Source of the DNA: an uncultured Parachlamydiaceae bacterium
GTDB lineage: Bacteria > Chlamydiota > Chlamydiia > Chlamydiales > Parachlamydiaceae
Direction of reading: 5' to 3'
NCBI GenBank assembly: GCA_963752155.1
Contig: CAVVXH010000004.1
Location: forward strand, 64,001-128,000
DNA: 64,000 nt
Shown here piece after piece: positions 30,484-47,104 of the stretch. Each line of letters begins with the position of its first letter. Position 1 is the first letter of the stretch. A program made the translations under genes and the position numbers. The notes under the pieces were generated by a model. The model saw only the letters and a program-made list of their open reading frames with translations, was not told the DNA's origin and made no database searches.

Positions 30484-31035
30484 ATGTCACTTTTTGATGG
30501 TATCAAACACATCAAAATGTTGACTTTTGATGCTTTTAATGCAATCATAAAGGAAAAGAAGGTAGATTTACTCATGTTAAAACCTAAAAAATCTGAAAAA
30601 TTATTTTTAGAAGAAATTTTTCTTGAGGGAAAAGTCTTGCAGAAAAAGCTTCAAGGCCTCTCAGTGGGACAGTTGATCCCGCTTATTCGGAGCCAGCTAG
30701 GGATGTCGCAACGCATCTTGGCAGCGAGGGCTGCAATTCAGCAATCTAGTGTAGTGAGGATTGAATCTGGACACTTCGATCCTAACATTTCAACCTTGAA
30801 AAAAATTGTGGAAGCGATGGAATGCGACTTAGTAGTCACAATTGTTCCGAGAACCGACTTAAAAACAACCAGAGAAAACCAAGCAAAACTAAAGGCGGAA
30901 CAAAAAATTCGCTACCTCCATGGGACGATGAGTCTGGAAAAACAGTCACCAAACCAAAAACTATTAAAAGAATTGCACGATGAGGAAGTAAAAAACCTTC
31001 TCGACTCATCTAGTTCAGCACTATGGGATGAATAA
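30484..31035 (+). CDS. Mobile mystery protein A-like XRE HTH protein
   Basis: IRSQLGMSQRILAARAAIQQSSVVRIESG HTH; CDLVVTIVP..HGTMSLEKQ..LWDE; paired with the Fic gene downstream. Confidence 0.85.
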   Translation: MSLFDGIKHIKMLTFDAFNAIIKEKKVDLLMLKPKKSEKLFLEEIFLEGKVLQKKLQGLSVGQLIPLIRSQLGMSQRILAARAAIQQSSVVRIESGHFDPNISTLKKIVEAMECDLVVTIVPRTDLKTTRENQAKLKAEQKIRYLHGTMSLEKQSPNQKLLKELHDEEVKNLLDSSSSALWDE

Positions 31036-31037
31036 TT

Positions 31038-31631
31038 ATGAAATTTACTTACCCTGAAGGTGCTACTCCTCTTGATGACATTAGCGGCCTAAAGCCTGTG
31101 TGGGTCAAAACTCAAGAAGATCTCAATAACATTGAAGCTGAAAACATCTCAAATGCCGCTAGCAAATATCTTTTAAGACCAGTTGGACCGCCACAACAGT
31201 GGTTTAACGTTCTTTTTTTACAGAAGATCCACCACGACATGTTTCATGATGTTTGGGATTGGGCAGGCAAATTTCGAACGACACAAACGTGCCCGGGGAT
31301 CAAACCTTATCAAATTTATGGAGCACTTGCTCATCTTTGCGATGATGTCCTGTATTGGTGCAAAGGAGGATGCGATTTAACGATTGTTGAGCAAGCGGCA
31401 AAAATCCATCATCAGCTTGTTTACATCCACCCATACCCAAACGGTAACGGTCGGTTTTCACGGCTAGTTTCAGACCGATACCTCAAGGCATGTAAATGCC
31501 CCTTTCCGAATTGGCCCGTGGACTTGAATAAGGATGGGCAATTTCGTAAGCAATATATCGCTGCGTTAAAAAGCGCTGATATTGGAGATTACGAACCTCT
31601 TATCCATTATATGATGGGGCTGGAGCGATAA
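31038..31631 (+). CDS. Mobile mystery protein B-like Fic-domain protein
   Basis: PEGATPLD N-terminus, WDWAGKFR, Fic motif HPYPNGNGRFSR. Confidence 0.9.
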   Translation: MKFTYPEGATPLDDISGLKPVWVKTQEDLNNIEAENISNAASKYLLRPVGPPQQWFNVLFLQKIHHDMFHDVWDWAGKFRTTQTCPGIKPYQIYGALAHLCDDVLYWCKGGCDLTIVEQAAKIHHQLVYIHPYPNGNGRFSRLVSDRYLKACKCPFPNWPVDLNKDGQFRKQYIAALKSADIGDYEPLIHYMMGLER

Positions 31632-34678: not shown

Positions 34679-35254
34679 CTACGAGAGAAAATTGGACGGT
34701 TCGACAGAAAAAAATCGTCCTAATGCGACTGCCTGAGGATATGAAAGTTGAGTACGTCCCTTGCGTTGATTTATAAATTCAGACACTTGACTTTCTGATT
34801 TAAAACAGTTAGGGACTAAATCTTTCTGATTTAAGTTATTTTCTTCTAATAACAGCTTGAGAAATACATATGGTTTGATATCTTTTGCAGTAGGAATATA
34901 ATGTTTTTCATCAAAATCTGAGATTAGCAACAACAAAACTTCTTTATAGTGCCTTATTTCTAATGGAGGATTAGATTCAAAAGCTCTTTCAAGATATTCT
35001 AAAAGGCCTTCTGCTTCGCGAGCTTCTTTTTCTGACTTTATTTGTCTTAATCTAAAAACTTGTAATAACGCGGAAAATAAAGAGTCAGCCTCAATGTTCT
35101 CTAATTTTTGGGAGATCTTCTCTAGCCCCACTACAGAAGGAAAACAAAAAAGTGATACTTCCTTAAGGGTTTTGCTTGTAATTAATCTCATGTTAATTCC
35201 TCTATTTCTTTTCATAACAGTTCGCATATTGCGAATCAAGATAATTCTAACCAA
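34679..35254 (-). CDS. HigA-like antitoxin (HTH); N-terminus may be a fused HigB stub
   Basis: EVLLLLISDFDEKHY...LKLLLEENNLNQKDLV..FKSESQVSEFIN..LGRFFSV. Confidence 0.8.
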   Translation of the reverse strand: MVRIILIRNMRTVMKRNRGINMRLITSKTLKEVSLFCFPSVVGLEKISQKLENIEADSLFSALLQVFRLRQIKSEKEAREAEGLLEYLERAFESNPPLEIRHYKEVLLLLISDFDEKHYIPTAKDIKPYVFLKLLLEENNLNQKDLVPNCFKSESQVSEFINQRKGRTQLSYPQAVALGRFFSVEPSNFLS

Positions 35255-35292
35255 GCAGCAATTCTCGCTAACTTTTCGTGCTCAGTAAGAAA

Positions 35293-35912
35293 TTGCGCAA
35301 ATTGTAGCTCATCATTCCAATGCATACGCATCAGGATAAGGATAAGATAAGGAATAAGGAAATTAAAATTTTATTTCCTTATCCTGAATCCTGATGCGTA
35401 TGCATTCCGAGTATACAGCTTGACACGTTCTGTTGCTACTGTGGATCAACGATAAGAACGATAAGAACGATAAAAAACTATAAAAACGATGGAAGAAGTC
35501 TGGTTGTAGGAAAAACCGTAATCGTGGAATTAAAATGTTGTAAAAGTTTGGTTCGCGAACATCAGGCGCAATTATTCAACTATTTAAAAGTTTCTCAACT
35601 TTAAATCGGTTTGTTAGCAAATTTCCGGCATAGGAAATTACTGCAAAACAATGAGGACTTTTCGACTAATCTAGAAGAAATCTGTGACGTACTGAGTATT
35701 CCACAAATTTTTATCGTTCTTATCGTTCTTATCGTTCTTATCGTTTTTATCGTTTTTATCGTTGTATCGTTGTATCGTTGTATCGTTGTATCGTTGATTA
35801 CGTCTACATAAAAAAACATATCCCGACAACATCGTGAATGCGTGTTAATGTTAATTTCCTTATCCTTATCCTGATGCGTATGCATCGGAATGATGAGCTA
35901 CAGTTTGCGCAA
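35293..35912. mobile_element. Nested palindromic element: 54-bp outer inverted repeats and inverted 8-9-mer arrays enclosing a GxxExxY remnant
   Basis: 35293-35346 vs 35859-35912 (2 mismatches). About 5 AACGATAAG-type units at 35447-35490 face 10 TTATCGTTN/TATCGTTG units at 35711-35796. Confidence 0.8.
35489..35700 (+). pseudogene. GxxExxY-family gene remnant (C-terminal half)
   Basis: From 35500: LVVGKTVIVELKCCKSLVREHQAQLFNYLKVSQL*IGLLANF, aligning to ILVENKVIIEVKATEKEQDIHKAQLLTYLRLSDIKLGLLINF of the gene at 46646. Stop at 35602-35604. Confidence 0.85.
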
Positions 35913-36091: not shown

Positions 36092-36934
36092 ATGCAAATA
36101 AATAAAGCATATAAATACGCACTTCAAGCAAATCAGAAAAATCTATTCTCCGATTTGAAGCATTTTCCCAAAAATCTTAAACAACGTAATTCGATTTTAT
36201 TTTATTTTGGAAGTTGTTTGATGGCCTTATTTGTGTTATTTTTAATTGCTTTTACAATTTGTCAATATTCTATCTATGAACTTTGCCATTGGCTAAAACC
36301 TGGGAAGTTCACTTTTTCTTTCGCTATGTACGTCTTTGCGATGGGTTGGTATCTTCACTATCTGAAAGATTCTCTTTCTGAAACCACCTTAAAAGCAATC
36401 ACCTGGATGATTATGATTATTATTACCTTAGAAATAATGATCATGTTGGCTCAAAGCTGGATGGCCTCTACATCGTATCTTTCATTACATGTTCCACCTC
36501 TATTGACCCAATCTCTTCAAGAGAAATTTTATGTTGCATGTAATGTTCTTATATTAGGTGGTACAGGCATTGCAGTATTTATTGCTGCACAATTTTTTAA
36601 AAACATACAACTTAAACCGATGATCTATCTGTGGTCTATTCGTGTGAGCTTTGTGATTTTTATATTAAGCTGTTTTTTGGGTATACTGATGATGACCTAC
36701 TATGGACAAACAAATCTTGGTTCAAGTGGTCTCAACATTCCATTTACTCAGTTTTCGACAGTGCGTAGCAACTTGATTTCGATGCATTTTCTTGGTATTC
36801 ATGCTATTCAGATCATCCCTTTAATCACCTATTATTCACAAAATTTCTTAGGGAAAGGATTTCTTATTTCCACTGTGACAATTTATTCTTCTGTATGTCT
36901 CATCTTGTTTTTGATGATCAATAATTTCTTGTAA
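36092..36934 (+). CDS. Hypothetical integral membrane protein
   Basis: Several transmembrane helices; WLKPGKF and HFLGIHAIQ motifs. Confidence 0.7.
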   Translation: MQINKAYKYALQANQKNLFSDLKHFPKNLKQRNSILFYFGSCLMALFVLFLIAFTICQYSIYELCHWLKPGKFTFSFAMYVFAMGWYLHYLKDSLSETTLKAITWMIMIIITLEIMIMLAQSWMASTSYLSLHVPPLLTQSLQEKFYVACNVLILGGTGIAVFIAAQFFKNIQLKPMIYLWSIRVSFVIFILSCFLGILMMTYYGQTNLGSSGLNIPFTQFSTVRSNLISMHFLGIHAIQIIPLITYYSQNFLGKGFLISTVTIYSSVCLILFLMINNFL

Positions 36935-43679: not shown

Positions 43680-43780
43680 TTCGCTGAATTATTCCTCCTC
43701 TGTGTTCTCTGTGATCTCTGTGGTAAAAAAAATCTACCACAGAGATCACAGAGAACACAGAGGAGGAATAATTGAGCGAA
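43680..43780. repeat. Perfect palindrome (39-bp arms) built of CACAGAGA(A/T) 9-mers
   Basis: 43687-43725 AATTATTCCTCCTCTGTGTTCTCTGTGATCTCTGTGGTA is the exact reverse complement of 43735-43773; 9-nt loop. Confidence 0.92.
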
Positions 43781-46536: not shown

Positions 46537-46645
46537 ATGCTTTTAACTCAATCTTTTTTTGAATCCTAGAATCAAGAGGCACCAATGGCAAGGCGCGAAC
46601 TTGTTATTTAGGAGAAGCAAGCGAAGGCACAAAGACACAAAGATC

Positions 46646-47104
46646 ATGGAAAATGAAATTTCTTATAAAGTAATAGGGGCCGCTATTGAGGTTCATCGAT
46701 TGCTAGGGGGACCAGGACTTCTGGAAAGCATTTACGAGAGTGCTTTATGCCATGAGCTGACTCTCAATGGATTAAGAATAGAGAGACAAAAACATGTCCC
46801 TGTGATATACAAAGGCATAATGATTAGAGAGCCGTATATCTTGGATATACTTGTAGAGAATAAAGTGATCATCGAGGTAAAGGCCACAGAAAAAGAGCAA
46901 GACATACATAAGGCTCAGTTGTTGACATATTTACGCTTGAGCGACATCAAATTGGGTCTTTTGATTAATTTTGGAAAGAGTGCTGTCAAATTTTTCGGGC
47001 AAGAAAGTTTAGCGGAAATTGCTGCTATTGGATCAAACAATGTTTATTCTTCGTCACTCCATTCATCAAGCTTGTCTTGCACAAAATTCCAAATGGTTTT
47101 TTAA
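46646..47104 (+). CDS. GxxExxY protein (PD-(D/E)XK nuclease-like family); C-terminus atypical after NFGKS
   Basis: IGAAIEVHRLLGGPGLLESIYESAL, DILVENKVIIEVKA, AQLLTYL..GLLINFG; preceded by CACAAAGA x2. Confidence 0.92.
   Translation: MENEISYKVIGAAIEVHRLLGGPGLLESIYESALCHELTLNGLRIERQKHVPVIYKGIMIREPYILDILVENKVIIEVKATEKEQDIHKAQLLTYLRLSDIKLGLLINFGKSAVKFFGQESLAEIAAIGSNNVYSSSLHSSSLSCTKFQMVF

Follow-up and report, generated by a model that had tools for sequence, protein, structure and literature searches.

In REPIN–RAYT systems and TIRtrons, as the excerpts of PMC3337134 and PMC3733652 available to us describe them, a small enzyme gene of roughly single copy is under purifying selection and has its own repeat class in its flanks. 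The same repeat is also dispersed between genes as gene-less inverted doublets that form hairpins, several enzyme–repeat classes share a genome, and reversed doublets derive from neighbouring copies. The GxxExxY cassettes reported here are alike in each of these respects. The family to which their gene belongs (TIGR04256; PDDEXK_3, PF13366) has its function given as unknown in the accessible part of PMC3424549, and flanking repeats are not mentioned in that part. The literature searched, in which subscription journals were mostly outside coverage and supplements were not included, held no description of repeat-bracketed GxxExxY genes, and the listed papers that name GxxExxY do so in passing. 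Among insertion sequences, IS1549 and IS1634 make target duplications of 8–514 bp (excerpts of PMC2266710).

The window is the whole stretch of 64,000 nt that was analysed (G000:C4:64001–128000), part of a metagenome-derived assembly of 3.13 Mb that is 80% complete. Within it, a sequence-only reading had taken the 620 bp from 35293 to 35912 as a candidate palindromic mobile element, a GxxExxY gene remnant packaged in inverted short-tandem arrays and outer inverted repeats. The locus was resolved into the following features, in window coordinates:

35256–35281 (+): lone end of V, a miniature inverted-repeat family whose ends occur genome-wide; no partner end at the locus
35293–35318 (+): left end piece of X, a palindromic family of ~250 bp, forming the outer half of the 54-bp inverted repeat; 44 genome hits, most of which continue into X's own interior
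35319–35406 (no strand): complete Y palindrome (GGATAA array; 19 hits), its left 28 nt forming the inner half of the 54-bp inverted repeat
35407–35447 (+): left outer flank, conserved in the AACGAT cassette family (21 hits)
35448–35492 (+): left box array of five units by box reading (four ACGAT, one degenerate), the last of which contains the former start codon (35489), no longer in frame
35499–35687 (+): 3′ half of a GxxExxY (PD-(D/E)XK) gene, ~205 nt deleted together with E33 and D72, stop codon at 35602–35604; the deletion is common to nine copies
35709–35796 (−): right inverted box array of 10 units by box reading
35797–35850 (+): right outer flank, conserved in the cassette family by repeat comparison
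35851–35885 (+): second, half copy of the Y palindrome, a direct repeat of 35367–35405
35887–35912 (−): right end piece of X by repeat comparison

The protein remnant was real. The span 35500–35630 had been said to encode the C-terminal half of a GxxExxY protein, and in profile searches 35500–35601, a translation of 34 residues, matched both TIGR04256 (36.8 bits, cut-off 35, E 4.3e-9) and PF13366 (38.7 bits, cut-off 22); DNA likeness to the intact gene of the genome spans 35499–35687. The ten inverted units to the right of the remnant were found as described (four measure 8 nt, the other six 9 nt), as were the enclosing 54-bp inverted repeats (35293–35346 and 35859–35912, complementary at 52 of 54 positions). 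The roughly five units on the left, the last of which supplies an ATG, were also present, but this ATG is not in frame with the remnant and reads MEEVWL before a stop. About 205 nt of the gene are missing, including the codons for E33 and D72, and the complete active site (E33, D72, E82, and K84 in an open frame) has been lost to this deletion, a frameshift, and the stop. With its ATG out of frame, two catalytic residues deleted, and a stop codon present, the window copy is therefore dead.

The copy is intergenic and sits between divergent genes (34679–35254 and 36092–36934), for which Pfam and NCBIfam gave no match of note; the left one we take from its sequence to be transcription regulator-like. 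A promoter scan returned three sites against 4.8 expected, and Rfam returned only generic hairpin matches far below the gathering score. When an empty site was sought, the right-hand neighbour was not found in five relatives with the query used, and the left-hand neighbour was matched at two loci, at only 43–44% identity. Elsewhere in the window (30484–31631), a helix-turn-helix gene is followed by a Fic-domain gene, likely a toxin–antitoxin-type pair.

One AACGAT-class cassette in the genome is intact (C10:276528–277354, 28 + 10 units). Its gene product, P0001 (G000:C10:276675–277100), scored 135.7 bits against PF13366, retains the complete active site in an open frame, and was matched by 14,144 clusters at 50% identity (E ≤ 0.001). 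Across 119 aligned sequences E33, D72, and K84 were invariant and E82 was at least 90% conserved. Values of dN/dS were 0.06–0.17 in the nine of 33 pairs with unsaturated dS, the remainder being saturated, and by this measure the GxxExxY gene is under purifying selection. A sequence search returned no solved structure for the protein. The model of P0001 had a pLDDT of 90, and its best Foldseek matches were lambda exonuclease and Cas4 (E ~1e-4); VIA gave a middling Z of up to 8.3 (rmsd 3.1, 98 aligned). A PD-(D/E)XK, restriction-endonuclease-like fold is thus predicted for P0001. Some relatives (P0122, P0123, P0138, and about 17 others) are 250–295 residues long and carry two GxxExxY domains, with at most one complete catalytic motif per protein in a rough motif scan, a hint that such proteins may correspond to a dimer with unequal halves.

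Arrays of the AACGAT class were numerous in this genome, with 87 in 44 clusters, and chance is excluded for them because a shuffled genome held only 2. All but one of the 44 clusters lay outside ORFs of at least 150 codons, which cover 76% of the genome. Besides the intact cassette, 29 other loci matched its interior (a few over only ~40 nt); nine copies, the window copy included, begin at the same point and share its deletion, and six carried a second deletion. The window copy is one of about thirty dead copies in the genome. It was 94–96% identical to six of the eight other copies with the same deletion and 86–87% identical to the remaining two, whereas its identity to the intact gene was 84% in an alignment that includes divergent ends. 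It follows that dead copies multiplied after the deletion had occurred. On sequence comparison the intact C10 cassette is the closest living relative of the dead copies and not their literal parent. In two genomes of the same genus, no array was seen upstream of the gene that neighbours the intact cassette, but that region was not alignable.

The copies have also been rearranged. Among the 30 copies, 20 could be typed for the right flank, and in six of these the interior was flipped relative to the outer flanks, so that the right flank stood at the 5′ side of the gene. One locus had expanded to nearly all array (26 + 57 units) and carried the right outer flank on both sides. These flipped interiors and the doubled right flank point to crossover inside the arrays, whose units, in a reading of unit patterns, show ordered variants and block duplications. 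The true unit is a GxxExxY gene with inverted arrays of three to four boxes.

A second GxxExxY gene in the window had been read as intact and preceded by a short tandem unit:

46624–47104 (+): second-class GxxExxY gene (CACAAAG-type boxes at 46624–46643, ORF from 46646) with its 3′ end replaced by a V end at ~46990–47024; TIGR04256-type profile match of 142.6 bits, 34% identity to P0001

Family membership and the upstream boxes stood, but the claim of an intact gene did not. The right-hand array was overwritten by the same V-family end, and the gene is neither the parent of the remnant nor fully intact, since it is only 34% identical to P0001, has another box type, and has lost both its own 3′ end and its right array.

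The genome holds further repeat classes of similar build. A third full-length GxxExxY gene (G000:C6:157328–157672) has CACAAAG-class palindromes on both sides, and gene-less inverted CACAGAG-class arrays in back-to-back order lie in the window at 43698–43762; about 33 places of the CACAGAG class and about 75 of the CACAAAG class were counted. At G000:C1:43222–43428, a four-helix-bundle-family gene stands between inverted GGACAA-type arrays, a motif found at about 57 places in the genome. The inverted short-array layout is therefore not specific to the GxxExxY nuclease, as this gene, which has no nuclease fold, is bracketed likewise. Two Y1/HUH transposase genes (PF01797; G000:C10:596730–597053 and C11:40824–41105) are each flanked by a repeat family of their own. 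The PF07592 profile had no match in the genome, and the controls were equally without a match.

The layout was then compared across 80 relative loci from the species collection, of which seven were too short and 73 were tested. The strict test, which asks for one 6-mer repeated in tandem upstream and again, inverted, downstream, was positive at 42 of 73 loci, or at 30 of 61 after 13 near-identical copies of one genome were collapsed; the controls gave 1/134 offset windows and 1/1460 shuffles. A looser ungapped alignment found arms in 48 distinct loci and none in 15, against 3 of 141 control windows. The expected enrichment of GxxExxY loci for inverted short tandem arrays was thus observed (30/61 independent loci vs. 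1/134 controls). In each cassette, private variants found in one arm recur in the other. Most AACGAT-class relatives had three to five boxes per arm, with 9–14 in 2 of 15 (short-read genomes may under-assemble long arrays), and in two genomes with an intact gene every array inspected had four boxes. A tree of 61 rows was built with 14 near-duplicates and the short loci left out; in it, AACGAT boxes occurred in 16 of the 17 rows of a clade with 99/98 support, and box type changed twice, compared with 14.3 times when shuffled. Box type is thus coupled to protein clade; because kin share labels, the tree shows coupling and is not proof of co-evolution.

Among 73 genomes of the family, the triple-box pattern was present in 16 and occurred at least five times in 13. 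An AACGAT-class gene or remnant was found in nine of these 13; the other four (73–89% complete) had no AACGAT-class gene that we could see. Of the remaining 60 genomes, three had a gene of at least 64% identity, one of them of the AATGAT class. Array load differed sharply within genera (143 vs. 0 in one, and 11 vs. 0, 0, and 0 in another). Among 20 regions, gene-less 4 + 4 doublets (67–245 bp) and gene remnants were seen in three genomes (G020, G022, and G009) within palindrome loops of the CAGGAT, CACAGAG, or CGCAAAG class, and in a fourth (G018) at unrelated flanks. Dispersed gene-less and deleted copies occur both in the window's genome and in others of the family, and the suggested insertion into other palindromes agrees with their frequent placement in palindrome loops, in the window's genome as well as in those three.

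For a Bacteroidota family, presence and absence at an orthologous site could be followed across a single operon junction, which was matched in 26 of 41 genomes. We take this junction to be leuC–leuD. A GxxExxY cassette or remnant filled it in 6 of 26 genomes (the query genome included), another repeat-bracketed insert in one, and neither in 19, where 0–121 nt separated the genes; strain-to-strain variation of this kind had been predicted. The filled sites begin within ~10 nt of the upstream stop codon, run in the operon's direction, and belong to different box classes. In G094 (locus L120), this junction holds a 476-nt insert with inverted GCCAATGT-type arrays on either side.

The explanation we prefer, to whose being right and being wrong we give about equal weight, is that the window holds a dead, deleted cassette copy nested in unrelated repeats, that the intact protein binds and nicks or cuts its own boxes, that repair reshapes the arrays, and that outer elements do most of the dispersal. 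A repeated box with a conserved core, a variable spacer, a pitch of 8–9 nt, and no RNA-strand bias is most readily interpreted as a DNA array bound by a protein, and the intact GxxExxY protein would probably bind it. Because the start codon falls inside the upstream array, binding would also repress the GxxExxY gene. The conservation of the active site, together with rearrangements that centre on the arrays, suggests that the protein would nick or cut DNA at the boxes, after which host repair would lengthen, flip, delete, and re-nest the arrays. Long-range copying would probably be mostly the work of outer IS-type or REP-type miniature elements, with the cassette as cargo. Mobility driven by the nuclease itself is putative. 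A bolder version, which we put forward tentatively and lean against, makes GxxExxY proteins box-specific nucleases that define a selfish-element class of their own: each clade would recognise an array of its 6–7-nt box and cut there, inserting gene-bearing and gene-less copies at operon junctions and palindrome loops without target duplication, and runaway array growth would be the footprint of repeated cutting.

The rival that survives best regards the cassette as a pure passenger, its boxes serving at most as an autorepression operator or end marker, while unrelated transposases (IS-type miniature elements, RAYT/TIRYT) do the copying and replication slippage lengthens the arrays. We consider it unlikely. 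In its favour, every clear transposition signature belongs to an outer element. Genome-wide, the V family has 169 end hits and 49 pairs, 26 of them with a duplication of at least 8 nt (22 of 9 nt), and its members with 9-bp duplications include four whose cargo is an inside-out array junction of the AACGAT cassette. A second case was found in genome G104. There, a 14-nt terminal repeat with 34 hits forms pairs that enclose a 717-bp unit, present in about 16 copies and containing an intact GxxExxY cassette:

L144–L173, L043–L096 of G104: 717-bp miniature element with IS1634-like ends and an intact GxxExxY cassette

Exactly abutting duplications of 92–503 bp accompanied seven of the 15 copies examined, and four more fitted in part. 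The 14-mer also follows an IS1634-family ORF in another genome (G226; E 1.6e-19, below the full-length cut-off). An IS1634 gene is present in G104 itself, at a locus without the 14-nt end at up to three mismatches. No other relative has many intact copies, and those of G104 are owed to the carrier, with the cassette as cargo. In fact, each time a transposition signature can be seen, an IS-type miniature element is carrying the cassette, with 9-bp duplications in the window's genome and 92–503-bp duplications in G104. The multicopy status of a cassette can thus reflect hitch-hiking, and copy number alone is no proof that the nuclease moves DNA.

Also in favour of a passenger are the two Y1 transposase genes, which have separate repeat families of their own, and the block duplications in the unit patterns, which are typical of slippage or unequal crossover. 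Moreover, flanks 90–150 nt outside the AACGAT clusters were multicopy in 48 of 88 cases, compared with 67 of 300 intergenic controls. A passenger does not, however, readily explain why gene-less 4 + 4 doublets of several genomes have unrelated flanks and also lie in other box palindromes, why different box classes entered the same operon junction, or why the gene keeps its active-site residues and is under purifying selection.

An RNA-level intervening sequence is a rather improbable alternative. Pairing of the arms in the transcript would loop out the gene and mask its start codon; the insert would be removed by RNase III, as in ORF-carrying 23S rRNA intervening sequences. The fold of 35293–35912 is indeed very stable (z = −17.4 as RNA and −15.2 as DNA, vs. 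20 shuffles each), the junction cassettes follow the upstream stop codon within ~10 nt in the operon's direction, and four-helix-bundle genes, the family of rRNA intervening sequences (excerpts of PMC4990558), show the same layout. However, G–U-type mismatches numbered 55 in sense and 53 in antisense, and this absence of strand bias gives no support to selection for an RNA hairpin. A hairpin can pair without any box being repeated at conserved spacing; in 12 of 59 loci the upstream ORF runs on the other strand, and the window copy itself lies between divergent genes.

The original proposal treats all 620 bp, along with the ends, as a single self-contained palindromic mobile element that its own nuclease would move, and it is very improbable. 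In its favour, a composite of Y palindrome, cassette derivative, and half Y recurs about seven times in the genome and was therefore copied as a block. The ends, however, differ among copies and are drawn from high-copy, unrelated families, and the enclosed gene is dead. The 54-bp outer repeat consists of 26 nt of X and 28 nt of Y (families with 44 and 19 hits); it is not the terminus of the cassette but belongs to these other repeat families. X ends stand on both sides in only two of the nine same-deletion copies (the window copy and C17:46578), while the others end in other modules, and such variable outer ends contrast with the fixed terminal inverted repeats of a miniature element in its own right. 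No target duplication was found at the window copy or at most of the others; among 13 cassette loci examined (the window copy and 12 others), 12 had none and the remaining one had a 6-mer at shifted boundaries. The window copy was likely transported by outer repeat families of the X/Y type. X was also present in one of 60 genomes searched, which is of the same genus, and at C10:253036 it lies inside the loop of a CACAAAG-class palindrome; no transposase gene was seen beside X at ten loci of genome G002. Genome-wide, X end pieces pass into other modules mostly at a shared, box-core-like CCGAT, in events that are not independent and were not counted as evidence.

Mis-assembly of the long arrays and mosaics has next to no probability, for although the metagenome assembly is 80% complete and the locus is not spanned by independent reads (a small-share DNA run contributed just scattered pieces), the arrays have ordered variant units, the copies share derived changes, and 15 of the 72 other genomes of the family have the same arrays.

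If GxxExxY proteins are box-specific nucleases, they would represent a repeat–enzyme partnership like REPIN–RAYT in which the enzyme has a restriction-like fold, and nature would offer a collection of compact nucleases whose target boxes can be read. For an orphan nuclease family of very large size, the adjoining box array would be a specific, testable substrate, with a matched box for each clade and hence cognate and non-cognate controls at hand. The AACGAT cassettes explain a large share of the intergenic repeat load in some environmental chlamydiae (44 clusters of one class in a 3.1-Mb assembly). Equally important is the caution that cassette copy number can come from IS-type hitch-hiking.

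Set beside known systems, the cassettes resemble MITEs and transporter IS elements, including the IS1634/IS1549 type as treated in the excerpts of PMC2266710, in that derivatives with internal deletions multiply. The 717-bp element of G104 fits that type closely, with exact terminal repeats and duplications of 92–503 bp that fall within the range given for IS1549 and IS1634. Those ends and duplications are the carrier's, however; for the cassette itself no fixed end or duplication was found, and it encodes no DDE transposase. With the ORF-carrying 23S rRNA intervening sequences (S23/four-helix bundle), which the accessible part of PMC4990558 describes as selfish, the cassettes share a small ORF within complementary arms, and four-helix-bundle genes in the window's genome have arrays like those of the GxxExxY cassettes. 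Those sequences reside in rRNA, whereas the cassettes are intergenic, show no RNA-strand bias, and carry a nuclease-family gene. The REPIN–RAYT enzyme, in the excerpts cited at the outset, is an HUH/Y1 tyrosine transposase whose repeat arm is a palindromic REP, whereas the cassette gene is a PF13366 member of the PD-(D/E)XK type and its arm a tandem of non-palindromic 8–9-nt boxes. Also unlike REPIN–RAYT systems and TIRtrons as described there, the cassette places its start codon inside the last box, and its arrays reach up to 57 units.
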